Origin: an uncultured Gemmatimonadota bacterium
GTDB lineage: Bacteria; JAAXHH01
Length of the DNA: 64,000 bases
Assembly (NCBI GenBank): GCA_964655785.1
Contig: CAZZNP010000002.1
Coordinates: 6,727 to 70,726, forward strand
Reading direction: 5' to 3'
The notes beneath the pieces were generated by a model. The model had not been told where the DNA came from, searched no databases, and was given only the letters and a program-made list of their open reading frames with translations. Shown one piece after another: positions 4,647 to 26,067 of this stretch. Position 1 is the first letter of the stretch. Every line of letters begins with the position of its first letter. Made by a program: the position numbers and the translations under genes.

Positions 4647-5030
4647 TCAGGGCGCCCGGGACTTCAGCCGGAAGGCGAAGATGTCGAGAACGTCCTGGGA
4701 CAGCGTAATTCCGCTCGAATGGCGGGCCGCTTCGGCGTACACGGATATCGGTTGGGACGGCCTGAAATACAGGTCACGCTGGATGGCGATGCCGAACCTT
4801 CCCTTGAACTTTTCGACCTCGGAAACATGGATCGTCCCCAGCTCAGGACAACCGAAGCCGAGATCGACCAGACCGTGGGCGATATCGGGGTCCGCCGGAT
4901 CAAGCCAGGCGATCAGCCACGTGGCCGGACCGGCCGGATCGAACAGACGGACCACCGGATGGTGGTCCGCATCGGGTTTCGCACCGTTCCTGAGCAGCTG
5001 CTCGCGCTGCTCGTCCGTGATCAGCTTCAT
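4647..5030 (-). CDS. DUF2958-family protein (plasmid/ICE-associated)
   Basis: MKLITDEQREQLLRNG...PVVRLFDPAGPATWLIAWLDP...GLVDLGFGCPELG pattern typical of DUF2958. 4-nt overlap with the upstream gene. Confidence 0.65.
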   Translation of the reverse strand: MKLITDEQREQLLRNGAKPDADHHPVVRLFDPAGPATWLIAWLDPADPDIAHGLVDLGFGCPELGTIHVSEVEKFKGRFGIAIQRDLYFRPSQPISVYAEAARHSSGITLSQDVLDIFAFRLKSRAP

Positions 5031-6820: not shown

Positions 6821-6860
6821 TCTCTGTCATGGCCATGTCCATTACCCGATCGGGAACCCT

Positions 6861-7621
6861 TTACCTCTTCTGTTGCCGATGCCTGTGAATCCTGCCGCCC
6901 AGGGACTCGCCGGCGAAGAAAGTCCAGCCGGTATCGGTCTCCACACTGGAGATTTCGGCAAGGAGTTCCGGGTGATGGATTGCACCGTTGACCAGGTCAT
7001 CGCCACAGCCCATGATGCAGAACACGCAGGATTTGCGGCGGTTGGGGACGGCGGGTTCCGTATAGATCCAGAATGGCCGTTGCCCGAATGCGCGTATCGT
7101 GCGGAAGACCTCCCCCTCGGAGAGTTGGTGAATGGGAAGCCACTCATAAACTGTCCTGCCGGCAGCGGACAGGCGGGTGTGTATCGACCAGTCGGGTCTC
7201 CTGCTCCGATTGGAGGATTCCTCCGCCCTGAAGCCGACACAGCTGACCGCGAGAAACAGGCCTCGGCTGCGAAGGTCCTGGCGGATGAACCGTTCGATGG
7301 GTCCGCGCTTGAGATCACTGGTGCACTGGCGGTATCGCGGGGATGGCCAGCACGGCACATTCGGGTTCTTCCTGGCGCGGTCGCGTACCATCTCGAGGAA
7401 ATTTCTCCTGGCCCGGACCACGTGGAGCTTCTGCGAAATGTTCGACCGGATGTGCTCCAGGGTGCCGGGCCATTCCACATGGCCGAGGTCAGCGTGTACC
7501 ACCACGACCTGGTCATGGGGCACGAGCCGGCTGACCCGGGCATACATGGCTTGGCTGTCCTTGCCGCCGGAATGGGAGATATAGAAGATCGCCCCCGCAT
7601 CGATGAGCTCCTGCAGTGTCA
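6861..7621 (-). CDS. PAPS-reductase-family PP-loop ATPase (IbrA/DndC-like, short form)
   Basis: PP-loop motif ISHSGGKDSQ. The internal Met at 7621 is preceded by a GGAGG RBS, so the ORF-track N-terminal extension to 7805 is probably not translated. Confidence 0.75.
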
Positions 7622-7864
7622 TCTCACTGCCTCCCTGGGGCCGTTGATGACAGCGGCGACAGCCAGGTGTTTGCGGTCGGCAGTGGCGCGGTGGGTGGCC
7701 TTGCCGCGATCGTCCGTGAGCCAGGCGGTCCATTTGCCGCGGACGAACCCGCGATGCGGATTGGCGATCTGCCACTGATAGACGGATCCCGACCGATTGC
7801 CGCAAACCCAGGAATAGTCACGGCCCTTGCATTTGCGGCGGGTGTAGCGGATTTTCATTCTCAT
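7619..7864 (-). CDS. Small Cys-containing hypothetical protein, translationally coupled to the PAPS-reductase-like gene
   Basis: Strong AGGAGG RBS 6 nt upstream of the ATG at 7864. The stop overlaps the start of the next gene (ATGA). Confidence 0.45.
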   Translation of the reverse strand: MRMKIRYTRRKCKGRDYSWVCGNRSGSVYQWQIANPHRGFVRGKWTAWLTDDRGKATHRATADRKHLAVAAVINGPREAVR

Positions 7865-8259
7865 GGTGTCCTCCTGTGTCGGGTGGTCGTAAAAAAGCCG
7901 GCGCATGTGCGCCGGCCCTGGAAGGGAAATGTGAGTCGATCGTCAGTGAAGCCTGGTTGATCCGGCTGCCTGACGGTTCCTGCGCAATGACCTGGCGACG
8001 AACCGGGTCCACTGGTCGCGGGACAGTCCGAGCCTGGCATTGAACCGGTCACAGACCGTTTCAGCGGTCTTCAGGTTCAGGGCGATCAGTGAAGTCGGTA
8101 TCGAACCGGGCATACCGTCGACGAAGATCCGGATCTGCTGGGTCTCGCCGGGCGGCCCTGCCCCATAGTCGGGGCTGAAGCAGAAGTTGGGGATCGCCGG
8201 CAAATCATGTGTGTTGGTTTCCATGGGAATCACCTGCATGTTCGTTGGATGGGAATAAG

Positions 8260-8277
8260 GGGGCGGATGCCCGCCCC
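8260..8277 (-). terminator. Possible weak intrinsic terminator downstream of the ParB-like gene
   Basis: GGGGCGG-atgc-CCGCCCC hairpin followed on the minus strand by a short TTATT stretch, ~45 nt after the ParB-like stop. Confidence 0.25.
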
Positions 8278-8318
8278 TGGGGGGGGACGGGCACCGTAAC
8301 TTCAGAACCTGAAAGGAA

Positions 8319-10448
8319 TCAGTCGCCTTCGGCGAGAAACCCGGGAAGCTCCCTGGGTTCCGCTTCAGACGAAAGATCCGAATCGGGTTCCGAATCGGAT
8401 GAACCGGAGAATGCCTGGAATCCCGGCATGGTCCACCCAAGGGCAGCCGCGTGCTGCGCGGCGGTGAGGCCGGCGGAAGCACCGCCGTCATCGCTTTCGG
8501 AGAAAGCCTTCTCCATCGCCGCCGCGAGGTCCGCCTTGCGGTACTTCGAGCGGTCCTGGGCCCAGGTTCCCCCCAGGGTCTCGCCGGCGATCGCGAGGAG
8601 CTGGTCCTTGCGCAGGCGCGACCACAGCATGTCCGCGGTGGGCCGCACTTCCCTGGCGAAGTCGATGTCCAGCCGTGCGACGGTAGCCTCCAGTTCCGGG
8701 CGGTTGCCATACTCGAACGAGAGCTGGCCCTTCACGGTCCGGGCGACGGCCGCGGCGAACAGAGCTTCCTTCTTCTCCCGGGAGAGCTTCCGGAAAGCGG
8801 CGAAGCGTGCCCCGTCATCTTCCTCCTCCATCCAGTCAAGGGACAGCGAGGAAATGTCGTCGAGGGCGTCCTCGGAAGGACTCCAGGATGCGAAATCGTC
8901 ATGGTTCATCCTGACCATGGGCCGTTCGGCCGTGGGCCTGAAGGAAATGTCGAGAGCATCCCGATAAGCGCCATGGGCGTGATCGAACACGGCCCTGGCT
9001 GACTGGAACACCGCGAGGTCGAAGGCCGCCCCGAAGTCACCGGCGAGGTGGAACTTGACGATCCCCGCGCGGATGGCGCGGAGGTCATCGGCCAGGCCGA
9101 TGCCGACCCCGGCTTCCTCCCGCGCCCTCGCGCTGGGATTGGAACTCCTGGCTGAGCCGGATGGCGGCAGGATCGTGGTGTCGCCATCTTCGTTTGCATC
9201 GCCGGCATGATCGCCGCCATTCGCTGCAGAGCGATTGGGCTTCTTCTCTTCCGGTGTCGGCAGATCCTCGACCCTGACGAGACCCGAGATGACCTTGAGC
9301 TCCCCATCGCGGTCGATGGTGACGATGCAGCCTCCGATCGAGAGATCCTGCTTGCGGAATTTGGCGCGTTTCGCAATCCGTTCACGGATGGCGTCCACGC
9401 GGTTCTCCAGCTTTTCAGCCTCGTCCTCCAGCTTGTCGGTCCATTCGTCGTCCGGGATATCGGAGAGTTCGTCCATGCGGGCATTGATGCTCGCGAGGTC
9501 GGATTCTTCCTTCGCCGTGGGCTTGCCCGGCTCGGGCTCGATGCGGCCGTACTGATAGGTGGCGTTCCAGTCCACCTCCAGCATCGGCAATGCCCACTTC
9601 CACTTCGTGGCCAGTTCATCGGCCGCCGCCGTCAGTTTCTTCATGGCGAGGTCATTGAGCAGCGCCGGGTCATCGAACCATTCGCCGGATTCGTCCTCCT
9701 CGGCGAACAGGTCCCGCATGACCGGGCCGCCGGCGGCGACGTAGTCGTCCATACCGACGAACCGCGCCACGGATGAAGCGGAAGAAACACGCTCTTCGGT
9801 GAGCATCCGCCGGATCTGCCAGGCCGTGGGCCGGTAACTCTCGGCCGAGATCTGGTTCCAGACTGTCAACTGGCGATCCTGGTCGGTGGTCATGGCGAAT
9901 GCCTTCAACGCGGCCAGGTCCATCTCGCCGGCACGGTAGGCGTCGAGAAGTGCAGGAGCGGCATTGCCGAGCCGGAGACGCTGTTCCACGGTATTCTCGG
10001 AAATGCCGAAGCGGGCGGCGATGGTCGCCACGGTGGCTCCCTCCTGCATCAGCTTTGCGAACGAAACCACCTGATCGGCCGGGTGCATGGCCACACGAAC
10101 GACGTTTTCGGCCAGGGAAAGCTCGCTGGCGTCGTCGTTGTCCACGACCAGGCAGGGAACAGGCCGGTTCCTGGCGAAGCCACCGGCCGCGGCGATCGCG
10201 TTGAGCGCCTTGAGGCGGCGACCGCCGGCGATCACGGCGAACTTGCCCTTGGACCGGGATCCGGATTCAGGCCGGACGACCAGATTCTCGAGGAGTCCGT
10301 GCGCCTTGATGGAAGCCTCGAGTTCCGCGTGGGCGGCCTTGTCGGCCGAGGTTTTTCGCACGTTCTCAGGGGCGAGGACGAGCTGGTTAAGGGGGATTGT
10401 CCGGATGGCCTGTTCGGCCGCGGACGCGGTAGAAGAGTTGGATTTCAT
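8319..10448 (-). CDS. parB: ParB-like nuclease/partition-domain protein (large ICE-type ParB)
   Basis: N-terminal ParB/sulfiredoxin motifs LNQLVLAPENVRK, GLLENLVVRP and FAVIAGGRRLKAL. 709 aa. Confidence 0.8.
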   Translation of the reverse strand: MKSNSSTASAAEQAIRTIPLNQLVLAPENVRKTSADKAAHAELEASIKAHGLLENLVVRPESGSRSKGKFAVIAGGRRLKALNAIAAAGGFARNRPVPCLVVDNDDASELSLAENVVRVAMHPADQVVSFAKLMQEGATVATIAARFGISENTVEQRLRLGNAAPALLDAYRAGEMDLAALKAFAMTTDQDRQLTVWNQISAESYRPTAWQIRRMLTEERVSSASSVARFVGMDDYVAAGGPVMRDLFAEEDESGEWFDDPALLNDLAMKKLTAAADELATKWKWALPMLEVDWNATYQYGRIEPEPGKPTAKEESDLASINARMDELSDIPDDEWTDKLEDEAEKLENRVDAIRERIAKRAKFRKQDLSIGGCIVTIDRDGELKVISGLVRVEDLPTPEEKKPNRSAANGGDHAGDANEDGDTTILPPSGSARSSNPSARAREEAGVGIGLADDLRAIRAGIVKFHLAGDFGAAFDLAVFQSARAVFDHAHGAYRDALDISFRPTAERPMVRMNHDDFASWSPSEDALDDISSLSLDWMEEEDDGARFAAFRKLSREKKEALFAAAVARTVKGQLSFEYGNRPELEATVARLDIDFAREVRPTADMLWSRLRKDQLLAIAGETLGGTWAQDRSKYRKADLAAAMEKAFSESDDGGASAGLTAAQHAAALGWTMPGFQAFSGSSDSEPDSDLSSEAEPRELPGFLAEGD

Positions 10449-14315: not shown

Positions 14316-14603
14316 TGCAATGCTCCGGAAATGGTGAATGGGAATGCCGGCACCCTCTCGGTTTCCCGGCTCACTCATCTCCAGGCATCACACGAACTCT
14401 ATTTCACTGAAAACAATGAATAAGTGTCCATCCCGCGACAAATTGCTACGTAACTGGACTACACTCGGAGGGTTGGTTATTCATATTACCTAGTTCATAA
14501 TTCGGCAGTTTCAGGAATTCGAGAACCAGATCTCGAAAAATCTAATAGAATCAGTAAAGTACTTCACCAATTCACCAGAAACACAGAGAGGAGGCACTAA
14601 AAT

Positions 14604-16256
14604 ATGGGGCAAAAAAGAATCCTCCTGATGGAACCCGGGTACCGGAACAAATACCCTCCCCTTGGGCTGATGAAGCTCGCGGCATATCACAAGGCCCGCG
14701 GGGACTACGTAAAGTTCACAAAAGTGGGTTTCGGCAAGGACGAGGGGATGTCATCACTGCTGGAGGCCCCATGGGACAGGGTTTACGTCACTACGCTGTT
14801 CAGCTTTGAATGGAAACGGACAGCCGAGGCCATTGATCGGGCAATCCAGATCGCGGCAATGCAGCCGGAGAGAGTCTTTGTGGGTGGAATCGCCGCCTCT
14901 TTGATGCACGATGACTACCAGAATGAACCCAAGTGGGCTGGAGTCCGGTTCATAAAGGGACTTCTGGTGGGATCACCCGCGGAGTCCCTGAAACTGTCAG
15001 CTGACGATTACGATTTCGGTGCGGATGACCTGTCAGGGCGCCCAATTGAAGAACGGACCCCGGATTACGAGATTCTGTCAGACATCAGCTACACCTACCC
15101 GGTACGAGACGCCTATTTCGGCTACGCATCGAGAGGCTGCGTCCGGAAATGTGCGTTTTGCGGAGTGCCCAAGCTCGAAGGCCCACAGCGTGAAATGCCA
15201 CCCCTGACGGAACTTGTGAATGGAATCGACGCTGCCCACGGGGTCAAGAAGGACATGGTGCTGATGGACAACAACATCACCGCATCCGCCCGATACAAGG
15301 AAGTAATCGCCGAATTGCGGGATCTGGGATTCGAGTCCGGAGCCACAATTACAAATCCTAGCGGCCGGAAAGTGAAACGGCGCGTGGATTTCAACCAAGG
15401 AGTCGACGCCAGAATTCTGGCCAAGTCGCCGATGTACCTCAAGGAAATGTCCAGTATCTGCATCAGCCCGCTACGCATCGCGTTCGATCATATCGGGATG
15501 AAGAAGGTCTACGATGTGGCCATCAGGATGGCGGCAGACAACGAAATCACGTCGCTGTCGAATTACATGCTTTACAACTTTATGGACTCGCCCAGTGACC
15601 TGTATGAGCGAATGAGGCTGAATATTGCACTAAACGAGGAGCTGGGGATCAGGATCTGGTCGTTTCCCATGAGATACCAGCCTGTGACACTCAAGGAGCG
15701 TACTCACGTGGGAAAATTCTGGAACCGATACTACTTGAGATCTTTCCAGATCATGCTCCAGGCAACCCATGGTCTGGTCAGTGGTAATCCGTCTTTCTTC
15801 AGGCGGGCATATGGCGAGGACAAGCACGAATTCGAGCATCTACTCAGCTTGCCCCACGCCTTCATTTTCCACCGGGACCACTACGAATTTGAAGACGGAA
15901 GACCAGTTCTAGATGAATATTTTGGGCACCGCAAACGTTTGTCCGAGAGTCAGGAGAAAGAATTGATCGGATACCTAGCGGGACCGGATGGTGCAATATC
16001 CGGTCTACCAAGGAAGCACTACACGAAGCTGATAAGCGACAGCACGATAGCCCCGGCAATTCGTGAAGTTTTGAGATTCCACACCCTCGATACCAGGCAC
16101 CGGCTTGGTTCCGAGGACAAGAAAATCCTGCCAGTATTTTCACAACTCAATCCTGACCCTGTCATGCCCGAAGAGGATGAACACGTGGAAGACGCTGGCC
16201 TTTACGATGATGATGCAACGCAACAAGACATAAGAGATAAACGCGTAAGCGTCTAA
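14604..16256 (+). CDS. Radical SAM enzyme with an N-terminal B12-binding-like domain (class B rSAM-like)
   Basis: N-terminal ILLMEPGYRNKYPPLGLMKLAAY (B12-binding-domain-like) and the CxxxCxxC cluster YASRGCVRKCAFCGVP. GAGGAGG RBS. Lies in the AT-richer island. Confidence 0.8.
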   Translation: MGQKRILLMEPGYRNKYPPLGLMKLAAYHKARGDYVKFTKVGFGKDEGMSSLLEAPWDRVYVTTLFSFEWKRTAEAIDRAIQIAAMQPERVFVGGIAASLMHDDYQNEPKWAGVRFIKGLLVGSPAESLKLSADDYDFGADDLSGRPIEERTPDYEILSDISYTYPVRDAYFGYASRGCVRKCAFCGVPKLEGPQREMPPLTELVNGIDAAHGVKKDMVLMDNNITASARYKEVIAELRDLGFESGATITNPSGRKVKRRVDFNQGVDARILAKSPMYLKEMSSICISPLRIAFDHIGMKKVYDVAIRMAADNEITSLSNYMLYNFMDSPSDLYERMRLNIALNEELGIRIWSFPMRYQPVTLKERTHVGKFWNRYYLRSFQIMLQATHGLVSGNPSFFRRAYGEDKHEFEHLLSLPHAFIFHRDHYEFEDGRPVLDEYFGHRKRLSESQEKELIGYLAGPDGAISGLPRKHYTKLISDSTIAPAIREVLRFHTLDTRHRLGSEDKKILPVFSQLNPDPVMPEEDEHVEDAGLYDDDATQQDIRDKRVSV

Positions 16257-16278
16257 GAATCAACCCTGAGGAGTTACC

Positions 16279-17757
16279 ATGCCGAAGAACACCGAACCAG
16301 CATCCCTGGTGGGAGCGGATATACTGAACCTGGTTACAACCGGTATGTACCACACCCCACTTGCAATTTACCGGGAATACATTCAGAACTCGGCTGACGC
16401 GGTCGAAAAGTCCAAGTGGCGTGACCAGGGACGAGTAGAGATCTCAATCAATCCAGGAAGCAACAACGTCAAAATCAGGGACAATGGCCCTGGACTGTCA
16501 CCTGAACAGGCAATACGGAATCTGATACCAATTGCGAGGAGTTCCAAGCAGCGCGGTGTAGACCGCGGCTTCAGAGGAATCGGCCGGCTTTCAGGCCTAG
16601 CGTTCGCGGAAAAAGTTACCTTCAGAACGAGAAGCAAGAAAACACAGCCGATAACCGAGGTTTCCTGGGACGGAATATCCCTACGTGCGAATGCTGTCTC
16701 CAATTCGGATCCGGAAAAGATCATCAGAAACTGTGTACAGGTATCGGAAATAGATGACAGTGGATGGCCAAATAACTTCTTCGAAGTGGAGATTGAAAAA
16801 ATATCCAGATATGCGGCGGACAGGATCCTGAACCGAGAAGCTGTCCGAAGATATATTGCAGAGGTGGGGCCGGTTCCCATGTCAGAATCGTTTCCGCTTG
16901 CGAAGGACGTAGAGGCTCTCTTCCCGGATGAAAACAGACTTCTAGCACTGGAAGTCACCTTGGAAGGAGAGGAAGAGCCGATACGGCGCATGCATGGTTC
17001 CGGCCTCAAGTTTTCGGAAGACCGGAAGGATACCTTTAGGGAAATAGAAAGAATCAGAATTCCGGCTGTTGACAGCGAAAAAGATGCAGCAATCGGGTGG
17101 ATCGCTCACACATCATATCTGGGGGCAATCCCAAAAGACATGGGGGTACGAGGGATCCGGCTCAGAGAAGGGAACATACAGATCGGAGATGAAGACGTCC
17201 TAGATCCTCTGTTCAAGGAAGAACGCTTCAACAGGTGGTGCATAGGGGAATTACACGTGATCGATTCACGGCTCCTGCCGAATGGTCGCCGTGATTATTT
17301 CGACCCCAGCCCACACGTGAGACATGTTGAAAATCATCTTGAATCAATCATCCACGGGGTTGTGAAAAGATGTCGGAGTGCTTCATCTAACCGGGTACAG
17401 TCGAGGAAGCTACATACGGTACTGGAACACATGGACAGTGCATATAGTATTGCTGGCTCGGGTTATCTGAAAGCGGCAGACGCCAAGGCCCTCATAGCGG
17501 AAGCCCTGGAAAAATTGCAAGAGCTCGAAGACAACATGCCCGAAGGAGGCCTGATATATCAACAAAACGGGAAAAAGCTAATTGAACTCAAAACGAAACT
17601 GAACGGATTCAAACCAAGGAGAGGCCGGCCGTCCCTGGAAAACGTCCGCAGCGGGGAGGTTGCTACCTACCAGAGAATATTCAGGGCGCTGACGGAATTT
17701 TGCCATTCTCCGGCAATTGCCAAGGAGATGATCGAGGGAGTTCTAAAACACGCTTAG
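16279..17757 (+). CDS. GHKL ATPase (HATPase_c_3 / MORC-like)
   Basis: N-box REYIQNSADA, G1 box IRDNGPGLS and G2 box FRGIGRLSGLAF. 22-nt gap after the rSAM gene; same strand and composition. Confidence 0.75.
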   Translation: MPKNTEPASLVGADILNLVTTGMYHTPLAIYREYIQNSADAVEKSKWRDQGRVEISINPGSNNVKIRDNGPGLSPEQAIRNLIPIARSSKQRGVDRGFRGIGRLSGLAFAEKVTFRTRSKKTQPITEVSWDGISLRANAVSNSDPEKIIRNCVQVSEIDDSGWPNNFFEVEIEKISRYAADRILNREAVRRYIAEVGPVPMSESFPLAKDVEALFPDENRLLALEVTLEGEEEPIRRMHGSGLKFSEDRKDTFREIERIRIPAVDSEKDAAIGWIAHTSYLGAIPKDMGVRGIRLREGNIQIGDEDVLDPLFKEERFNRWCIGELHVIDSRLLPNGRRDYFDPSPHVRHVENHLESIIHGVVKRCRSASSNRVQSRKLHTVLEHMDSAYSIAGSGYLKAADAKALIAEALEKLQELEDNMPEGGLIYQQNGKKLIELKTKLNGFKPRRGRPSLENVRSGEVATYQRIFRALTEFCHSPAIAKEMIEGVLKHA

Positions 17758-17825
17758 CACAGTAGTTCCTGACTCGTGGTTCACGAGTTAATAAAACACC
17801 AATTCACCCCCAGGTAGTCGATTGC

Positions 17826-20132
17826 ATGGACAAAGAATATCTAACACCCATCATTGCAGGAGACGAGATCACGTCTGAACTTAGGCGAAGACGTAGCAAG
17901 GATAGATTTCAAACGATTAAAGCGACGAATAAAAGCCGTCTTGCTGAGAAAGTAAAGCTGGAAACGGAAGAAGGATGGAAAGTAGCAAAGAAAAACAAAA
18001 AATCTACCCGAATGGCGAAGGAAAAGCCGGGCGATGAACAACTGGAGGATGAAATCTGGTGCATGCTTGCACGGATGGGATTCAAGGAATTGAGCCATGG
18101 TCGTCAGTTCACAGTATCGGTAAGAGACGGCCAAAATCCAAGACAGATCGACGTATTCGCCAAGGATGACGAGACAACAATAATCGTCGAATGTACGCAT
18201 AGAAAAACACCAGGAAGAAAAAACATGTCCTCCCTGATTGAAAAGATACAGGCTATTAGAGGGGATACGATCAATTCAATCCGTAAGCACTATGGGAGGG
18301 AGAGTGCACTGAAGTTCGGGGCAGTAATCGCCACAAGGAATATAGATTGGAGCGAGGCCGATCTTGAGAAATGTGCAAATGCAAGAATTAGCGTACTTAC
18401 GGACGGTGAGATTGACTACTATAACGCATTGATAGCGCATCTGAAAAAAGCCGCCCGCTACCAGTTCCTCGCACATATCTTCGGAGGACAGAAAATTGAA
18501 GGACTGGTTACCACAGTACTCGCGACACGTGGAAAAATGGGGGGAAATTATTTTTATACATTCATGGTGAGTCCGGACGCACTTTTAAAAATTGCATATG
18601 TAGGACACAAGGCAAGCAGGGATACAGAGAACATAGAAACATATCAACGAATGCTGCAATCAAATCGGTTAAGGAAAATCGCGGAATACATTAATGAAGG
18701 TGGGAAATTTCCCACCAATATCGTCTTGAACCTGAAAACTAAGAAGAGGAACGACCTAAGATTCGAAGTGATCGAGAAACTTGGTAATGAAGCTCTCGGA
18801 AAATTGCATCTTCCACCGAATTACGCATCTGCTTGGGTCATCGATGGACAACACCGCCTCTATGGATACGCATATGCACGAGAAGGCGAAGGGTTCAAAG
18901 CGGACAAGACTACTCTACCCGTTTTGGCGTTTGAGAATCTGCCGTCAAAAGATGAAATGGACCTGTTCATCGATATTAACAGCAAGCAGGTAAAGGTAAG
19001 CACTAGTTTACTTGTGGAGCTCTATGCCGAGCTACACTGGGGCTCAGATGATTCCGATGAAGCATATGAAGCACTCTTGTCCAGGATAGCGTCAAAACTG
19101 AATTCCGAAAAAACGTCACCTCTTCGTGACAGAATGGTTGTCAGTGGAAAAAAGAAGACACCACACAGATGTCTGACACAAACGTCAATACGTGATGGAC
19201 TTGAAAAAGCTAAATTGATCGGATCCATGACAAAAGACGGATTCATCCCGGGACCTCTATCAACAGGCAAGCAAGACGCAAATCAGGAGCATTTAAAAAA
19301 GAGCGTATCAGTTCTGTCTGCCTGTCTGAATTTGTTTGCCGAACAGCTCAATGATCACTGGAATACAGGAGATGGCCCGGGTGGATATTTATGCACCAAT
19401 ATCGGAGTCAGAGCCATCTTTCATGTGATCAAGGACATAGCTGATCATTATCATCAAAAAAGTGGACATAACCTTTGTTACCTATCAACTGATGAAACAA
19501 TATCTACATTATCGCCATATTTACAAATATTGGTTGATTATTTCAAAGATGCATCCCCTCAGGAGATTCAGGATTTTAGGGGGATAGGATCTTCATTGGT
19601 GGCGGTTCGAAAACAATCATTCGGAATGGAAGCCCAAATTAACGAAAAAATAAATGAATTTTGCCCTGTAGAACTCAGAGAGTACCTAGATTCAAGGGAT
19701 GAAGCAGGAACACATGATGCGACAATATTGGTTAATCAAATACATTCGAAACTTTCAAAATATGTCATTGATACTTTGAAAAAAGAACACGGAGAAGAAA
19801 ACAAGGCATGGTGGACATTAGGAATCCCTAAAAATATTAGGATCGAATGCGCTAAGAAATGGGAAGAAGAAAACCGTAAAGGAGAGGAAGAAGGACAGCT
19901 ATTGTTGATCAACTACAAAGATATATGTCTCTTGAATTGGGAATTATTCAAGGACGTAATATCATTCGACGCTAGAGATAAAGAAAATAAAAGAGAAAAC
20001 ATAAAATGGATAATTGAATTGAATGAGATAAGAAGAATAACAGCCCATCCAGAAAGGGGAGTTCTAAATAAAGAGCAAGTGATAAAAGTCAATGAGATTT
20101 ATGAAAAACTGATTGAATATTTACCAGAATAA
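17826..20132 (+). CDS. DGQHR-domain (DndB-like, ParB-fold) protein with a possible N-terminal PD-(D/E)xK-like domain and a C-terminal HEPN-like Rx4H motif
   Basis: Exact DGQHR motif in WVIDGQHRLYGYAYA at the protein centre. The N-terminal region IDVFAKDDETTIIVECTHRK resembles a restriction-endonuclease-fold motif. C-terminal NEIRRITAHPERG fits the HEPN Rx4-6H signature. 768 aa, lowest G+C in the window. Confidence 0.7.
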   Translation: MDKEYLTPIIAGDEITSELRRRRSKDRFQTIKATNKSRLAEKVKLETEEGWKVAKKNKKSTRMAKEKPGDEQLEDEIWCMLARMGFKELSHGRQFTVSVRDGQNPRQIDVFAKDDETTIIVECTHRKTPGRKNMSSLIEKIQAIRGDTINSIRKHYGRESALKFGAVIATRNIDWSEADLEKCANARISVLTDGEIDYYNALIAHLKKAARYQFLAHIFGGQKIEGLVTTVLATRGKMGGNYFYTFMVSPDALLKIAYVGHKASRDTENIETYQRMLQSNRLRKIAEYINEGGKFPTNIVLNLKTKKRNDLRFEVIEKLGNEALGKLHLPPNYASAWVIDGQHRLYGYAYAREGEGFKADKTTLPVLAFENLPSKDEMDLFIDINSKQVKVSTSLLVELYAELHWGSDDSDEAYEALLSRIASKLNSEKTSPLRDRMVVSGKKKTPHRCLTQTSIRDGLEKAKLIGSMTKDGFIPGPLSTGKQDANQEHLKKSVSVLSACLNLFAEQLNDHWNTGDGPGGYLCTNIGVRAIFHVIKDIADHYHQKSGHNLCYLSTDETISTLSPYLQILVDYFKDASPQEIQDFRGIGSSLVAVRKQSFGMEAQINEKINEFCPVELREYLDSRDEAGTHDATILVNQIHSKLSKYVIDTLKKEHGEENKAWWTLGIPKNIRIECAKKWEEENRKGEEEGQLLLINYKDICLLNWELFKDVISFDARDKENKRENIKWIIELNEIRRITAHPERGVLNKEQVIKVNEIYEKLIEYLPE

Positions 20133-20173
20133 AATAGTGATTTCTAAAAATATCCCATACCCAACAATTCGTC

Positions 20174-20431
20174 ATGTCCATAAAGCCAACTGTTGAACAA
20201 CATGCCTGTTTGGTCAACGGAAAATTCATTTATTCCAGTTATCGGCACGCCCTCGCCGCGACCGATCCCCTGGCTTTCAAAGACAAAGAAAAGGGAAAGG
20301 AACGCAAGAGAGGGCATCGTACGTTCAAGAACAAGGGGCGTGTGACTATCGGGGAAAACGAATACAGACGCATCGATAACGGGCAGTCCCTAGGCAATCT
20401 GCTGGCAGATCTACTGGCTTTCAATAAATAA
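20174..20431 (+). CDS. Hypothetical small basic protein
   Basis: 85-codon ORF directly downstream of the DGQHR gene in the AT-richer island. No recognisable motif. Confidence 0.3.
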   Translation: MSIKPTVEQHACLVNGKFIYSSYRHALAATDPLAFKDKEKGKERKRGHRTFKNKGRVTIGENEYRRIDNGQSLGNLLADLLAFNK

Positions 20432-20464
20432 TCAGAACTTACTTAGCTTGGAAACAGTAAACCA

Positions 20465-21064
20465 ATGGAAGTAAATACTGGTATTGAGATCTGTCTTATC
20501 TCCTACTCGCAAATCATTACCGTTATGTCAACGGCAATAATCGCGGCATCGGCAGTAGTCACAGCCGTACTATCGTGGCGCCTCATATGTGATAACCGAA
20601 CTTTGGCCAAGGTGGGTACTGACCCGGAAGTGATTGCTCACTTGGCAGCAGACCCATTTCGACCCCTTGTCAATCTCGTTTTAGCAAATGTAGGGCGTGG
20701 TCCGGCAAAACAAGTTGAATTCGAACTTATTCTCGAAAAATCCCACTACGACCGCATTGTGCTGAGAAAGGAGCCAGATCGAAAGCCATTTGGATTCCTA
20801 CTTCAGGGAGAAAAAACAGAAATGCTATTTGGCGACCATAGAATGTTTGGAACGGGAGATGAGCGAGCAAAGAACGCGTTACAACCATTTCAAATTAAAA
20901 TTAAGTGGCAAAACCTCAGAGGGAAAAAGTTTGAAGAAAAATATATTCTAGATGTACGTCAGTTTCTCGGACTCCCACCGAACAGTTCCCTATACTCTCC
21001 TCTTTCAAAAATTGCCGATTCATTGGCTAAGATCGAAAAAACGATATCCCGCAGGAACTCTTGA
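20465..21064 (+). CDS. Hypothetical membrane-anchored protein (single N-terminal TM helix)
   Basis: N-terminal hydrophobic segment IITVMSTAIIAASAVVTAVLSW followed by a soluble domain. Last gene of the AT-richer island. Confidence 0.4.
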   Translation: MEVNTGIEICLISYSQIITVMSTAIIAASAVVTAVLSWRLICDNRTLAKVGTDPEVIAHLAADPFRPLVNLVLANVGRGPAKQVEFELILEKSHYDRIVLRKEPDRKPFGFLLQGEKTEMLFGDHRMFGTGDERAKNALQPFQIKIKWQNLRGKKFEEKYILDVRQFLGLPPNSSLYSPLSKIADSLAKIEKTISRRNS

Positions 21065-21148
21065 TTGACAGGTCCGCTGACGGATTGGAGGCGATGGGTG
21101 AATTCATTTACGTTGCAATGCCTGTCGTCAGGCAATATCCCCACCCGG

Positions 21149-21691
21149 CTACAGCAGCCGATAGATGCTGGCCCGGCTAAGTTCATACTTTTCCGCTAGG
21201 TCCCGGATCCGGACGCCGGCGGCGCGCTCACGGCGAAGCTCGGCAACCTGGCCCTTGGTGAGTTTCGAGGGAGGGCCGAATCGCACCCCCTCGTTACGGG
21301 CCCTCGAGATTCCTTCCGCCTGGCGCTCTTTCCGGAGGTGCACCTCGAACTCGGCGACAGCGGCCAGTATCCCGAATACGAGCTTGCCGGCCGAGGTCGT
21401 GGTGTCGATCGCCTGGTCGAGCACGACGAAGCCGACGTCGTTTTCCTGCAACTGCTCGAGGATCCGGTGCAGGTCCAGGGTAGAGCGCGCCAGGCGGTCG
21501 AGACGGGTGATCACCAGAACGTCGCCGCGGCGGACGAACCGGAGACATTCCTTCAGCGCCGGCCGGGCCGCGGTCCGTCCGGAGCGTTTCTCCTGGAAGA
21601 TCTCATCGCAGCCGTATTCCTGGAGTTTCTCGAGCTGCAGGTCCAGGTTCTGTCCGATGGAGCTGACCCGGGCATATCCCACTGTCGCCAT
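21149..21691 (-). CDS. Serine recombinase (resolvase/invertase, Hin-Gin-Tn3 resolvase family)
   Basis: N-terminal catalytic VGYARVSSIGQNLDLQ, the RLDRLAR motif and a C-terminal HTH (GVRIRDLAEKYELSRASIYRLL). Confidence 0.85.
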   Translation of the reverse strand: MATVGYARVSSIGQNLDLQLEKLQEYGCDEIFQEKRSGRTAARPALKECLRFVRRGDVLVITRLDRLARSTLDLHRILEQLQENDVGFVVLDQAIDTTTSAGKLVFGILAAVAEFEVHLRKERQAEGISRARNEGVRFGPPSKLTKGQVAELRRERAAGVRIRDLAEKYELSRASIYRLL

Positions 21692-21870: not shown

Positions 21871-22485
21871 ATGGCCACCAAGGCGGCAACGAAGGCTATG
21901 CCAAGGGCTACCTACCAGGACGTCCTCGATGCACCACCGCACAAGGTAGCGGAGGTCATTGAGGGAACCCTGTATCTGAATCCAAGACCGGCGTCCAGAC
22001 ATACCAGGGCAAGTTCTGTTCTTGGCAGTAGTATCGGGACGCCCTACGACTATGACAGAAATGGTCCCGGTGGATGGTGGATCCTCGACGAGCCGGAGCT
22101 GCACCTCGGCGAGGACATCCTGGTGCCCGACTTGGCGGGGTGGCGCCGGGAGCGGATGCCGGAATATCCTGATGTGAAATTCTTCACCCTGGCGCCGGAT
22201 TGGGTATGTGAAATTCTCTCCCCGTCTACGAGGGCGATCGATCAGGGCCTGAAGCGTGCAATCTACGCCCGGGAAGGGGTGACATGGCTCTGGTTCGTCG
22301 ACCCCGACGTCCGCACTCTGGAGGCCTTCGAACTGCGTGATGGCCAATGGCTTCTCCTGAAAACCCTGACCGAGAGTGATGCAGTGTCCCTGCCCCCGTT
22401 CGAAGCGATCAGTTTCAGTCTCGGGGATCTGTGGCCCTACAGTGGTGAGAAATCCGTTTCCGAAAATGGAGAGGAGGTGACCTGA
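21871..22485 (+). CDS. Uma2-family (DUF820) endonuclease
   Basis: Uma2 signature layout: EVIEGTLY near the N-terminus, VPDLAGWRRERMPE, and the catalytic-region motifs PDWVCEILSPST...D...K...YAREGV.W.WFVDP. Confidence 0.7.
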   Translation: MATKAATKAMPRATYQDVLDAPPHKVAEVIEGTLYLNPRPASRHTRASSVLGSSIGTPYDYDRNGPGGWWILDEPELHLGEDILVPDLAGWRRERMPEYPDVKFFTLAPDWVCEILSPSTRAIDQGLKRAIYAREGVTWLWFVDPDVRTLEAFELRDGQWLLLKTLTESDAVSLPPFEAISFSLGDLWPYSGEKSVSENGEEVT

Positions 22486-22956: not shown

Positions 22957-25900
22957 TCAGTCAAACAGATCACGTCCCCCATGTGTAGGGGGCCCGGTTT
23001 CTACCGGCACTGCCTGATCCGGCAGCAAGCCGGAGACGATCTCCTCGATTTCCCGGCCAGCGTCACTTGAGTGGACAGCGGCTCGAATCGCCTTTGATAT
23101 GCCAACCTGGCTCATCCCGGGTTTCCCTGCAAGGGCTTCACTGGCTGCCTCCTGTGCCAGTTTCTCGGTTTCCTCGCACAGCTTCGCCAGTCGCCGGTGT
23201 TGATCGATATCTTTGTTGAAACAGGGTATCGGGACCTTCCACCACGGATGAAGATGAAAGTCCCTGCCGCTCCCTCTGCATTGCCTGAAGGCCGTTTCCA
23301 GGCATGCGGCATTCAGCAGGGCAACCAGATATCCGGCTTCTTCCTTGTCCCGCACAGCCATCCAGTAAAGTTTCGAGCTCACAACAAAATTGCCAGTCGT
23401 TATCCTTGCAGCCCGCATGATGTCCCCGGAGGTTGGATAGAGAACAATCCATCCGTTGGTGTTTTCAGAGTCGAGTTGTGCCGACAGCTTTGACTGGAAA
23501 TCGAATTGCTTAAGTAAGGCCTTCGGCGTCGATTTCCCCTTTCCTGCCCTGCTTTCGTAGATCTCGTCCAGTTCACGCCAGAATGAACATTCATTGCCGG
23601 GGTTCTCAAGCAAGAATCCCTTTGTGTCCACCGGCACGATGCCCTTCACAGGCCGCACCGGGGGGATGTACGCCACCATCTCGGTTGAAGTAAGAACCGG
23701 ACGTACCCAGTGTGCCGGCATCAATCCGGTCTGGGGCCTGACCTCTTTCCACGGTTCCTTTGTCGATCGCATTGTCGTGACACGGACCATGCCTTCATGA
23801 TTCGGTCCTTCGATTTCATCCAACAGCGCAAGCACGTGGGGAACCAGTGTCGCGCCCTGCTTAATCATGACCGAATTCAGATATCCGGACTTCTTCTGCG
23901 GAAGCTGGGCGGGAGCCTCGCTGAATCCGAATTTCCGCCTGGCCGATTCCAGGGACTCTGATGACTTCGGACGTACGCCCCTGACCTTCAGCCGGGCTTC
24001 CAGTGTGCCGGGGCTGATGCCTTCGGATATATCGAACGCACAGTGCTCCATCAGTAGGCAACTGCGGGTTGCATCACCGCTACCGAATGGCTGCAACTGC
24101 TCCAGGTCGACCGATTGCCGCAAGGTGTTTCGATGAACTGACCGGAACGGCTCCCATTGCCCAGCAGCGATGGCGGATTTCTTCACCAGCCAGGATGCGG
24201 GGTTGCTCTCCGGTTTGGCCATGTAAAGCTTCCTGGCCGCCAGAATGAAATAGCTGGCGATATCGGAGTGAGGGGCCTGTTTCCCGGCACCGGTCAGACC
24301 CAGAGACCTGCCGTACTGTTCCAGAGTTCTCTTCCGGTCCGTGGCCTGTATCTCCGCCAGCTTCACCCAGGGTGGATTGGCCACGATCCGATCGACCTTT
24401 TTCTGTGCCAGAAGGTGGGGAGCGGCGATGTTGATCGTGTACCAGGTCCAGACCGAGTTGCCCTCGGCAGCAATGATCTCGGTCAGGGCCTGGTGGCAAT
24501 GTTCCAGCCGCTCGGATTCCACTTCCGACAGGGATTCCTTCAGGAACCCGGGCAATGGTTGACCCGCGGTCGCGGCACTGACAATCTCACGCATGTCGTT
24601 GGCAAACGTCCCTCTCCGGACGAATTTCATGGGGACCCGTATCTCCCTTTTTTCCGGAGTCTCGACCCTCATCAGGTCCTCGGTGTGTTCGAACAGGGAC
24701 TTCTGGTTTCCGGAATCGGCCTGCAGAGAATCACCCAGGTGCACCTGGAACGACTGGCCGCCCATGGTCGGCGGCGCCGGCAGGATCCTCTCCAGGTTCA
24801 CGCGTGCGAGTTCCACTGCCACGGGATGGATGTCGATCCCGTTGACCAGGCGTGAAACGATGTCGGCCCGCTGCACCGGTGTGAATGACTGCATTGACTT
24901 TGACGCCAGCAAACGGCGGGCCGCATGGAGAAGGAACGTGCCGGAACCGCAGGTGGGGTCGAGAACCCCGACTCCCCGAACTTCCGTACCACCGCGGATG
25001 GAGGCTATCGCGGCATTGATGGCCCGCTCCATCCATTGCTCGTCGAGAACCTCCTCCACCATCAGTGCAGCCAGCCAGTCCGGGGTGTAGAATTCACCGA
25101 AGACCTTCCGATCATGCGCGCTCACGTTATGATGGTACAGGCTGCGCAGGACATCTTCCTCGCGCCTCCGCCAGTCGTACGAGGTAACAAGCCTGTACAG
25201 TTTCCCTGCCCACTTCCGCCCACGCTCGAATTCCAGCACCCATGCGGCGAAACCATCACGTACCGCCGTCTTCCAGTCCGAACCCGAATTGGCCGGAAAC
25301 AGGGAGTGGGAAACCAGGCGGACCACTGCGATCAGGAAGCTGTGGGTGACGAACAGCCTGTCCTTCCCGGCTTCGTCGCCGGGAACCATGCCGGACGTTC
25401 GCATCATGTCCAGCCAGAGATCCCTTTTGGTCCGGGTAGGTCCTGCTGCATTAGCGGGAAGCGCAGCGTAAAGGCTGAAGAGTTCATTCCTGAGGGAGGT
25501 GAAGAGTGCTCCCGGATCCCCCGGTATCCACTCCTTGCCGAAATTCCTTTCGGCCAGAAGCGAGTGGAGGAATTCGGCCAAGGGAAGGGCCTCGTTCATG
25601 AATCTCAGGGGCGATCCGACAGGTTCCCCGATGGATTGAGGCCGATGGCTGTATTCATACACGTGCCAGTGCCGGCCGTCGGTCACAATGCCCACCCAGT
25701 TGCTCCGGACGAACTCAACGTCGTCGAAGGGAATCCTGCCCAATTCCCGGTTGATCTCGCCGATGACGTAACGGTCCAGCTGTTGCCGCGGCGACTCCGA
25801 CAGCCTTCCTTGCTGGGGTTTGTCAGGCTCTGCCGCCAGCGGATATGCCTTCAGCTCGATGAATGTCCTGCGATTGGGCAGATAAATGTCCGCCTCGCCG

Positions 25901-26067
25901 TCAACAGTCGTGTAGTGGGATTCGATCGACCCGACCTTGATTTCCCGAAGCAGGGCCTCAAGATCGGACTGCAGGTTGCCTTCCCTTTCGTGCCGCTCAA
26001 GGGGGTGGTTGAGAAACGCGGATGCAGCATCGAGGACTGCCTGACCCGGTGGCTTGCCCCGGGTCAT
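22957..26067 (-). CDS. Type IIG (MmeI-like) restriction-modification enzyme: N-terminal PD-(D/E)xK nuclease, gamma-class N6-adenine methyltransferase and C-terminal target-recognition region
   Basis: N-terminal D-x10-ELK (GEADIYLPNRRTFIELKAY). MTase motif I GVLDPTCGSGTFLLHAA and motif IV IVANPPWVKL. A 1036-aa single polypeptide. Confidence 0.8.
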   Translation of the reverse strand: MTRGKPPGQAVLDAASAFLNHPLERHEREGNLQSDLEALLREIKVGSIESHYTTVDGEADIYLPNRRTFIELKAYPLAAEPDKPQQGRLSESPRQQLDRYVIGEINRELGRIPFDDVEFVRSNWVGIVTDGRHWHVYEYSHRPQSIGEPVGSPLRFMNEALPLAEFLHSLLAERNFGKEWIPGDPGALFTSLRNELFSLYAALPANAAGPTRTKRDLWLDMMRTSGMVPGDEAGKDRLFVTHSFLIAVVRLVSHSLFPANSGSDWKTAVRDGFAAWVLEFERGRKWAGKLYRLVTSYDWRRREEDVLRSLYHHNVSAHDRKVFGEFYTPDWLAALMVEEVLDEQWMERAINAAIASIRGGTEVRGVGVLDPTCGSGTFLLHAARRLLASKSMQSFTPVQRADIVSRLVNGIDIHPVAVELARVNLERILPAPPTMGGQSFQVHLGDSLQADSGNQKSLFEHTEDLMRVETPEKREIRVPMKFVRRGTFANDMREIVSAATAGQPLPGFLKESLSEVESERLEHCHQALTEIIAAEGNSVWTWYTINIAAPHLLAQKKVDRIVANPPWVKLAEIQATDRKRTLEQYGRSLGLTGAGKQAPHSDIASYFILAARKLYMAKPESNPASWLVKKSAIAAGQWEPFRSVHRNTLRQSVDLEQLQPFGSGDATRSCLLMEHCAFDISEGISPGTLEARLKVRGVRPKSSESLESARRKFGFSEAPAQLPQKKSGYLNSVMIKQGATLVPHVLALLDEIEGPNHEGMVRVTTMRSTKEPWKEVRPQTGLMPAHWVRPVLTSTEMVAYIPPVRPVKGIVPVDTKGFLLENPGNECSFWRELDEIYESRAGKGKSTPKALLKQFDFQSKLSAQLDSENTNGWIVLYPTSGDIMRAARITTGNFVVSSKLYWMAVRDKEEAGYLVALLNAACLETAFRQCRGSGRDFHLHPWWKVPIPCFNKDIDQHRRLAKLCEETEKLAQEAASEALAGKPGMSQVGISKAIRAAVHSSDAGREIEEIVSGLLPDQAVPVETGPPTHGGRDLFD

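Follow-up and report, generated by a model that had tools for sequence, protein, structure and literature searches.

The question raised by this locus is whether three adjacent genes, for a radical S-adenosylmethionine (radical-SAM) enzyme, a GHKL ATPase and a DGQHR-domain protein, form a bacterial system of their own. They lie in a 64,000-nucleotide (nt) stretch of contig CAZZNP010000002.1 from an uncultured Gemmatimonadota bacterium. We call this whole stretch the window. An earlier reading made from the letters alone (the sequence-only reading) had proposed that the three genes are a candidate defense or DNA-modification system that works as a unit. We conclude that they belong to what is very probably a real conserved modular system. 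Its constant core is the radical-SAM-GHKL pair, whose two genes are inherited together and exchanged together.

In the window they occupy an island of low G+C content with sharp edges and a mosaic interior, at approximately 14345-21100, within the cargo of an integrative and conjugative element (ICE). ORF (open reading frame) calling gives five ORFs in the island, of which g1 to g3 are intact genes, all on the + strand, here named g1 to g5. Lengths are in amino acids (aa).

14345-14603, +, leader/promoter region of the radical-SAM-GHKL module and left edge of the island; G+C 0.44; homology to the locus L001 starts at 14345
14604-16256, +, g1, radical-SAM enzyme; 550 aa; G+C 0.53
16279-17757, +, g2, GHKL (MORC/Hsp90-like) ATPase; 492 aa; G+C 0.51
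17826-20132, +, g3, nuclease-like/DGQHR/HEPN-like partner protein; 768 aa; G+C 0.41
20174-20431, +, g4; 85 aa; G+C 0.48
20465-21064, +, g5, hydrophobic N-terminus; 199 aa; G+C 0.44
21149-21691, -, serine recombinase (resolvase), right island edge, possible mobility gene; Pfam Resolvase 1.9e-43; G+C 0.65

A constant core with exchangeable cassettes

The core was studied in 80 loci from species-representative genomes that were fetched with g1. Nearly all of these are metagenome-assembled genomes (MAGs), and they represent many phyla. Neighbors were analyzed by tblastn with g2-g5, followed by ORF calling and clustering of the flanking genes. By tblastn, a g2 homologue lies directly downstream of the g1 homologue in 79 of the 80 loci, and a g3 homologue lies upstream or downstream in only about 10. 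By ORF clustering, the g3-type cassette is present in 8 of the 80 loci, and in the window. The radical-SAM enzyme is the slowest-evolving part (62-91% identity across these loci, compared with 37-87% for the GHKL protein). At least one recognized partner cassette accompanies the pair in 76 of the 80 loci, and the cassettes are as follows.

Cassette A: ParB-like protein (~344 aa), small protein (~150 aa), SNF2 helicase (~492 aa) and ParB-like protein (~336 aa); 53 loci, on either side of the pair, once inverted
Cassette B: NurA-like protein of ~364 aa, HerA of ~565 aa and a second GHKL protein; 14 loci
Cassette C: g3-type protein; 8 loci
Cassette D: GHKL protein (~620 aa) and a ~336-aa protein; 11 loci (3 alone, 8 with A)
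Cassette E: PIN_8 protein and GHKL protein; 2 loci, both with A
No recognized cassette: 4 loci, one on a short contig, one without GHKL, one disrupted

The modularity is explicit in the comparison of the window with its closest relative, L001. The two share 82.6% nucleotide identity over 14345-17768, which covers the leader, g1 and g2, and the homology stops 11 nt past the g2 stop codon, where cassette A (SNF2/ParB-like) stands in place of g3. The arrangement recurs in well over 100 independent loci and is thus far beyond chance. The sequence-only reading had staked its proposal on the triad being conserved as a neighborhood, and we do find it in Algicella marina, on plasmid pNL1 and on many metagenome contigs. 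The triad itself is not the unit, however, since the invariant portion is the radical-SAM-GHKL pair (79/80) and g3 is optional (8/80), being one of at least four partner cassettes that replace one another.

The cassettes consist of enzymes that act on nucleic acids. The SNF2 helicase of cassette A resembles ZorD and DpdE, and the DrmD, BrxH, ZorD and DpdE models match nothing but this generic helicase, in other loci. The ~340-aa proteins of cassette A give weak but consistent matches to ParB, sulfiredoxin (Srx) and SbnI in PDB and NCBIfam, and their ParB/Srx assignment is based on these matches. When the ParB-like c0 proteins were compared with g3 by hhalign, the overall result was not significant; their IDGNTRL was aligned with IDGQHRL of g3. 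The small protein carries an invariant PD...EAK motif and is a small PD-(D/E)xK nuclease. In cassette B the 565-aa protein matches PDB 7f6d at E=6.6e-34 and is HerA. Its partner c6 has no sequence match in PDB and is called NurA-like for its homology to a gene annotated as an exonuclease beside HerA in Marinitoga camini virus 1.

Further units recur in these neighborhoods. The PIN_8 and GHKL genes form a two-gene unit beside the system (L140, 3090-6643; L141, 11218-14734; L009; L075), and the ~620-aa GHKL protein forms another with a ~336-aa protein that shows weak similarity to NF047698 (PP_RS20740 family). Each of the two units looks like a separate, unnamed GHKL-based module. In a clade at 55% identity, the GHKL gene is followed by a conserved gene of ~235-241 aa (L082, 15664-16371; L088; L105; L112), which has no NCBIfam match and no similarity to g4 or g5.

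All recurrent neighbors of the pair are nucleic-acid enzymes. This bears on the idea that the radical-SAM enzyme acts on a peptide or small molecule in a biosynthetic or cofactor pathway, such as tailoring of a peptide made on the ribosome and modified after translation, a lipid or an antibiotic. We consider this very improbable. Neither a transporter nor a precursor peptide nor any other biosynthetic gene recurs beside the pair, g4 and g5 are not conserved, and searches of Pfam and NCBIfam matched no biosynthetic family.

The radical-SAM enzyme and the GHKL ATPase

g1 belongs to the radical-SAM superfamily, for it has the CxxxCxxC motif (CVRKCAFC, aa 179-186, nt 15138-15161) and a matching predicted fold. 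C179, C183 and C186 are invariant in an alignment of 38 homologues. Only one other cysteine is invariant there, so no auxiliary cluster is indicated. The N-terminus appears to be a B12-binding-like Rossmann domain, and the predicted fold matches the cobalamin-type radical-SAM methylases of the B12-binding class (TsrM, TokK, MgmA). Profile scores for g1 are low, with Pfam Radical_SAM at E=1e-4 and 23 bits (cut-off 29.5) and B12-binding at E=0.006, also under its Pfam cut-off. With this qualification for g1, the domains that the sequence-only reading had assigned to the three proteins are upheld by HMM (hidden Markov model) searches, and every motif it quoted is present. No PDB sequence relative of g1 was found at E<=1. 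Of all families, g1 matches the phage family phrog_9298 best (3.1e-37 over aa 5-377). Clustered at 50% identity, the g1 family numbers 238 cluster representatives at E<=1e-30 and reaches 775 at E<=1e-10, and a word-indexed search with g1 returned thousands of proteins.

The long forms of the enzyme have a C-terminal disordered linker followed by a near-invariant VEDAGL(F/Y), which in g1 is an acidic tail, VEDAGLY, at nt 16185-16205. Among 95 radical-SAM proteins with a GHKL gene downstream, 80 carry the strict pattern and 12 of the remaining 15 a one-residue variant; the motif is missing from L109, L110 and L113 only. The short, GHKL-less forms are without it. This co-occurrence suggests that the tail is a docking peptide for the GHKL protein. 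Homologues that are longer still (680-824 aa) have no Pfam domain in their extra regions.

By its N, G1 and G2 boxes, g2 is assigned to the GHKL ATPases of the MORC/paraMORC/Hsp90/MutL type. The boxes of the Bergerat fold are intact (N, EYIQNSADA, nt 16375-16401; G1, DNGPG, 16480-16494; G2, GFRGIGRLSG, 16567-16596), and HATPase_c_3 is matched at 3.5e-11 and 43.7 bits, above the cut-off of 25. There is distant, weak similarity to HtpG/Hsp90, MutL, Topo VI-B and the BbrUII/HgiDII restriction-enzyme family. The Hsp90-like matches, together with the acidic tail of the radical-SAM enzyme, raise the alternative that g2 could be an ATP-dependent chaperone or reactivase of that enzyme and not a DNA clamp. 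However, paralogous GHKL proteins pair with PIN_8 and with HerA-NurA nucleases in the same neighborhoods, which speaks for a role on DNA.

A nuclease-like, DGQHR and HEPN-like protein

g3 is assigned to the DGQHR domain family TIGR03187, which it matches over aa 233-538 at 7.6e-60 and 203 bits (cut-off 58.85). The DGQHR motif itself (aa 340-344, nt 18843-18857) is invariant in 38 homologues. A Pfam DndB match (1.3e-15) also puts the domain in the DGQHR/DndB branch (TIGR03187, PF14072); it is nearer to DpdB than to DndB and far under both equivalog cut-offs.

Two further parts, which the sequence-only reading did not mention, flank this domain in the predicted model (mean predicted local distance difference test score, pLDDT, 78.8). 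The N-terminal ~220 aa appear to have a restriction-endonuclease-like fold, with Foldseek matches to Cdn1, VC1899, Card1, Can2, AF1548 and Hjc (E=3e-3 to ~1), a core at nt 18147-18197, and D109 and E122 conserved. The C-terminus is a predicted helical, HEPN-like domain with an Rx4H motif (RRITAH, aa 736-741, nt 20031-20054), in which R736 and H741 are invariant in the 38 homologues. The HEPN_Swt1 match is weak (20.4 bits, cut-off 27.5); PF18731 is precomputed for three homologues, and PADLOC PDC-M34B is matched at 4.3e-5. ParB-like DGQ(H/Q)R NTPases fused to nuclease and/or HEPN domains have been described and tied to DNA-modification systems (PMC3632139; PMC4619093).

Linkage of the three genes across genomes

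Metagenome loci of g3 were retrieved with an alignment of g3 homologues (57 loci), after a scan with the single g3 sequence had returned nothing. Relatives of at least 40% identity have the radical-SAM and/or GHKL gene adjoining in 26 of 34 loci, in several orders and orientations. In 7 of the other 8, the contig ends near the gene or is ~3 kb or shorter, and only L106 is truly without the pair. At 28-33% identity, g3 relatives lie beside a short radical-SAM gene (402-430 aa, ~40% identical over aa 4-425) and no GHKL gene; this is a two-gene DGQHR-radical-SAM form.

Plasmids show the same association. In PLSDB, 12 of 12 full-length radical-SAM hits have a gene with the annotation DGQHR domain protein immediately beside them; the host genera are Novosphingobium, Rhizobium, Bradyrhizobium, Mesorhizobium, Agrobacterium and Roseomonas. 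On the two plasmids inspected, pNL1 and pR132505, the start of the radical-SAM gene is overlapped by the gene of a short DGQHR protein (335-350 aa; Pfam DndB), and the GHKL gene follows. Alongside are a PIN_8/GHKL pair and either cassette A or a long g3-type gene. The g3-radical-SAM-GHKL set of Algicella marina is carried by an ICE, with the coupling protein (T4CP) on one side of it and the Trb genes on the other. IMG/VR contigs of the 55% clade have the cassette A arrangement again. Thus, the oldest link is between the radical-SAM and DGQHR genes, the tightest is between the radical-SAM and GHKL genes, and g3 itself is optional.

These data bear on whether the three genes of the window could be neighbors by coincidence, with g3 a stand-alone DGQHR-HEPN abortive-infection or type IV-like enzyme that shares a defense island with an unrelated radical-SAM-GHKL pair. 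Several observations agree with this: g3 adjoins the pair in only 8 of the 80 genome loci, its G+C is 0.41 and that of the pair 0.52, module swapping shows that the parts are physically separable, and the distant g3-like genes of L106, L133 and L137 have no radical-SAM gene. We nevertheless judge coincidence improbable. Starting from g3, the radical-SAM gene is adjacent in almost all adequately flanked loci, in both gene orders and orientations, down to ~30% identity; the DGQHR and radical-SAM genes overlap on plasmids; and some partner cassette is present in 76 of 80 loci. In the window, moreover, the genes are co-directional, with gaps of 22 nt (g1-g2) and 68 nt (g2-g3), the spacing that the sequence-only reading had given. 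No + strand terminator-like site was found between g1 and g5, in promoter and terminator scans that gave only background-level signals.

The close radical-SAM relatives (L001-L080) come from MAGs of more than 10 phyla, with names that include Poribacteria, Poriferihabitaceae, Spongiihabitans, Binatia and Dehalococcoidia. Judged from record titles only, they are apparently mostly sponge symbionts, and their presence in sponge microbiomes across so many phyla points to very extensive horizontal spread within that habitat. Relatives also occur in phages. In Phocaeicola phage PV4-TP1, a phrog_9298 member (L222, 5974-6891) has DNA methyltransferases and a PAPS reductase around it. In Marinitoga camini virus 1, a Thermotogae provirus (L223, 5998-9824), a 30%-identical radical-SAM gene lies beside HerA and a NurA-like exonuclease that are homologous to cassette B.

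A possible mark on host DNA

What, then, might the system do? We favor a mechanism of modification plus restriction, with a logic like that of Dnd, Ssp and Dpd, and give it a probability of roughly 45%. The radical-SAM enzyme would mark the host's own DNA by radical chemistry. The GHKL ATPase, recruited through the acidic VEDAGL tail, would clamp or remodel the DNA, and the ParB-like DGQHR NTPase would assist the radical-SAM enzyme as DpdB assists DpdA. The exchangeable cassettes would read the mark and attack incoming DNA that lacks it; for g3, the nuclease-like domain would carry out the attack, and the HEPN RNase would be a suicide or back-up arm. We propose this because the cassettes are made of restriction-type parts, with no conventional methyltransferase among the cassette genes scanned, and because DGQHR/ParB-like domains are known from DNA-modification systems, namely DndB, DpdB and COG1479, DndB being ParB-like and found fused to HEPN (PMC3632139). 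The division of labor suggested by the sequence-only reading, in which the radical-SAM enzyme modifies, the DGQHR protein senses or acts and the GHKL protein is a motor, is compatible with this proposal.

A more specific form of the proposal is tentative, and we hold it to be possible but doubtful. Here the B12-class radical-SAM enzyme would write a chemically new mark, for example by a radical reaction that alkylates or methylates an unactivated base or sugar carbon, and would be delivered by a MORC-like GHKL clamp and ParB-like NTPases. The mark would be the self-signal of a widespread restriction-type immunity in which the SNF2/ParB-like, HerA-NurA, DGQHR-HEPN and PIN-GHKL modules are freely swapped as its nuclease parts.

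Several points weigh against marking and restriction. To our knowledge, no radical-SAM enzyme installs a self-mark on DNA in any defense system. The case is built on gene context and analogy. The pair occurs without a recognized cassette in L002, L053, L060 and L068, and the g3-like genes of L106, L133 and L137 have no radical-SAM gene despite long flanks. The nuclease-like core of g3 reads E-C-T at the usual ExK position, and the domain may for this reason be inactive. Also, abortive infection would suit a HEPN RNase no less well than restriction does.

The last point leads to an alternative without a standing mark. The GHKL and/or ParB-like proteins would sense invading DNA or another cue of infection and activate the radical-SAM enzyme, which would make a toxic or chain-terminating nucleotide or damage nucleic acid directly by H-atom abstraction, and the nuclease and HEPN cassettes would complete an abortive infection. 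Radical-SAM enzymes are already known as antiviral effectors (viperins, Ophion OpnA), the invariant Rx4H of g3 is typical of an abortive-infection RNase, no separate self-protection gene is visible, and fusions of DGQHR/COG1479 domains to nuclease and HEPN domains have been proposed as cell-death modules (PMC3632139). However, g1 has no PADLOC viperin match, and its fold is that of the B12-binding class (TsrM, TokK, MgmA) and not viperin-like. No nucleotide-handling partner (kinase or phosphoribosyltransferase, PRTase) is present. A strongly conserved radical-SAM enzyme beside fast-changing partners also fits a housekeeping-like modifier better than an effector in an arms race. We regard such an infection-triggered effector as unlikely and retain modification plus restriction as the preferred explanation.

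Comparison with known systems

The sequence-only reading had stated that the combination does not match dnd, ssp, dpd, BREX, DISARM or viperin-type systems. We reach the same conclusion, as none of the tested membership criteria for these systems, or for Ophion, applies to the locus. g1 and g2 are covered by no PADLOC v2 or NCBIfam model as system parts, and PADLOC matches g3 alone, through its DGQHR and HEPN parts. The markers of Ssp (SspABCD/SspE), BREX (PglZ/PglX) and DISARM (DrmA/B) have no PADLOC match in g1-g5. In a literature search that covered subscription journals thinly, we found no description of this system.

Dpd, the system of 7-deazaguanine in DNA, is similar in several respects. 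It couples a DGQHR/ParB-like protein to a DNA-modifying enzyme, DpdB is the best match of g3 in the defense library (2.2e-19), a SNF2 helicase that resembles DpdE is found in cassette A of the relatives, and both systems join a modification core to a larger restriction module. In Dpd, DNA modification by DpdA depends on the ATPase of DpdB, and DpdD-K give restriction (PMC10164549). However, g3 reaches only 62.6 bits with the DpdB model NF041060, whose cut-off is 300, and is not an equivalog. The island has no TGT-like DpdA and no DpdC match; the enzyme here is a radical-SAM protein, the core includes a GHKL ATPase, and the restriction-like modules are different and interchangeable.

In the phosphorothioation systems Dnd and Ssp, DndC (Fe-S enzyme), DndD (DNA-handling ATPase) and DndB (DGQHR protein) parallel the radical-SAM, GHKL and DGQHR proteins, respectively. 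One modification core there also serves alternative restriction modules (DndFGH, SspE or PbeABCD), and mobile islands carry the genes. However, DndC is a PP-loop enzyme outside the radical-SAM superfamily (PMC10853773), and a GHKL protein takes the place of the SMC-like DndD. No homologue of DndA/C/D/E or SspABCD is found in the island, g1, g2, g4 and g5 have no Dnd matches in PADLOC or NCBIfam, and g3 scores 23.7 bits with the DndB equivalog model TIGR03233 (cut-off 328).

The MORC/paraMORC restriction-modification operons likewise carry, on mobile DNA, a GHKL ATPase with intact ATP-binding motifs together with SWI2/SNF2 helicases and restriction-fold nucleases, and a DNA-looping or remodeling role has been predicted for the ATPase (Iyer, Abhiman & Aravind 2008, PMC2292703). 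They include DNA methyltransferases and Vsr, whereas here a radical-SAM enzyme is in the place of the methylase and ParB-like proteins are added; that paper mentions neither radical-SAM nor ParB. A paraMORC operon combines an SF2 helicase, a restriction-fold nuclease and a methyltransferase, and the window has neither a SNF2 helicase nor the PD-(D/E)xK protein of cassette A. GmrSD, SspE and other COG1479 (DUF262) proteins resemble g3 in the fusion of a ParB-like DGQ(H/Q)R domain to nuclease and/or HEPN domains, but g3 is of the DGQHR/DndB branch, has no HNH/DUF1524 and is genetically tied to the radical-SAM gene.

Among radical-SAM enzymes, g1 is only 9-14% identical to the class B enzymes TsrM, TokK, CysS and MgmA/QCMT and to the non-cobalamin AprD4. 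It differs from class B also in having no conserved auxiliary-cluster cysteines and in its context of nucleic-acid enzymes instead of biosynthesis. The phrog_9298 proteins of Bacteroides/Phocaeicola LoVEphage-type phages and Clostridium phage phiCT453B are its nearest family, but they are ~305 aa long, are without the C-terminal third and the VEDAGL tail, and have no GHKL or DGQHR neighbor that we saw. Viperins and Ophion share with our locus a radical-SAM enzyme in an actual or candidate anti-phage system. The nearest folds of g1 are B12-class, unlike viperin. Ophion consists of a radical-SAM protein (OpnA), a PHP protein (OpnB) and a PRTase (OpnC) (bioRxiv 10.1101/2025.09.30.679545), and no PHP or PRTase domain occurs in the island.

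Island boundaries, flanks and mobility

The G+C of g1-g5 (0.41-0.53) is below that of the flanking genes (MoxR-like gene, 0.63; resolvase, 0.65), as the sequence-only reading had noted for the island and its backbone. It had also suggested that the two small downstream ORFs may belong to the system, and this did not hold. g4 and g5 have no family match in Pfam, PADLOC, NCBIfam or PHROGs and were matched by tblastn in none of 138 related loci (L140-L223 lie outside that test). The one place where they recur is L081, which is a Logan assembly of this very DNA. Neither gene is conserved or belongs to the system.

The conserved leader opens at 14345-14400 with a G+C-rich inverted repeat, GCCGGCACCCTCTCGGTTTCCCGGC, that is retained in L001 and may serve the upstream gene as a terminator or be a site of recombination. 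We rejected a riboswitch or other RNA in the leader, with zero Rfam family matches anywhere in the window, leader included. We also rejected repeat-marked island boundaries, as just short repeats at chance level were seen.

To the right of the island are the serine recombinase, a Uma2 nuclease (21871-22485) and an N6_Mtase/Eco57I-type fusion protein (22957-26067, -). To the left, on the opposite strand, is a cluster of MoxR-like ATPase, DUF3150 and DUF2201-vWA genes that is also found on Burkholderiales plasmids, and further left are ParB, a PAPS-reductase-domain protein, a second GHKL protein and a Strawberry-notch-type helicase. Genes for TraG_N, TraC_F_IV, a T2SSE ATPase, a secretin and a prepilin peptidase at 34.7-62 kb identify a conjugative element. 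Of the neighbors named in the sequence-only reading, the serine recombinase, Uma2, the restriction-modification gene and the ICE backbone were located in the window.

Some features of these flanks deserve mention. A GHKL-domain protein (597 aa), the PAPS-reductase-domain protein (6861-7805) and ParB (709 aa) stand in a row at 5027-10448 (-); they may be ICE backbone or another DNA-modification-like trio. The PAPS_reduct-domain gene, 7 kb upstream and on the other strand, shows no linkage to the system in other loci. The MoxR-like, DUF3150 and DUF2201-vWA genes prompted the idea that g1 is an effector of a vWA-MoxR system (PMC7159879). We rejected it because these genes are absent from 80 of 80 radical-SAM loci, are on the other strand and match plasmid/ICE backbone clusters. 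The g3-like gene of L106 (Ga0316207_10001597; 40% identity), which has no radical-SAM gene, has MoxR-like and DUF2201 genes in its vicinity, much as in the left flank of the window; the two may mark a common cargo-insertion hotspot of one ICE family. In the 55%-identity clade, 6 of 9 IMG/VR loci (L144, L146-L150) have a serine recombinase no more than ~1.5-2.7 kb away from the system, and the recombinase at the system edge may mobilize the module.

Carriage on mobile DNA raises a different function, in which the pair serves the element. It would modify ICE, plasmid or phage DNA against restriction in the recipient, or act in competition or maintenance, while the nuclease cassettes would hit rival elements or enforce addiction. 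The system is ICE cargo here and in Algicella, is on conjugative plasmids of Novosphingobium, Rhizobium and others and in IMG/VR contigs, is often adjoined by serine recombinases, and has a phage relative among DNA methyltransferases. However, many chromosomal copies adjoin housekeeping genes (MutS, sulfate permease, sensor kinases), and HEPN, PD-(D/E)xK, HerA-NurA and SNF2 are the usual content of defense modules. Mobile elements also commonly carry defense systems, so location does not discriminate. We consider an element-serving function unlikely, and continue to favor modification of host DNA coupled to restriction.

Implications

Whatever its mechanism, the family described here comprises hundreds of 50%-identity clusters that are absent from PADLOC v2 and NCBIfam, with an architecture of a core plus swappable cassettes. 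Culturable Alphaproteobacteria carry the system, namely Novosphingobium aromaticivorans DSM 12444 (pNL1), Rhizobium leguminosarum WSM1325 and Algicella marina, and this makes it directly testable. If the proposed mechanism is true, it would be a fourth chemistry of modification-based bacterial immunity, after methylation, phosphorothioation and 7-deazaguanine, and a new job for radical-SAM enzymes, possibly with a new natural DNA modification. Should the radical-SAM enzyme indeed write the mark on DNA, that chemistry would be categorically new and the mark would be the first epigenetic or defense mark on DNA written by a radical-SAM enzyme. In that case, its phage relatives (phrog_9298) would possibly write a similar mark for counter-defense.

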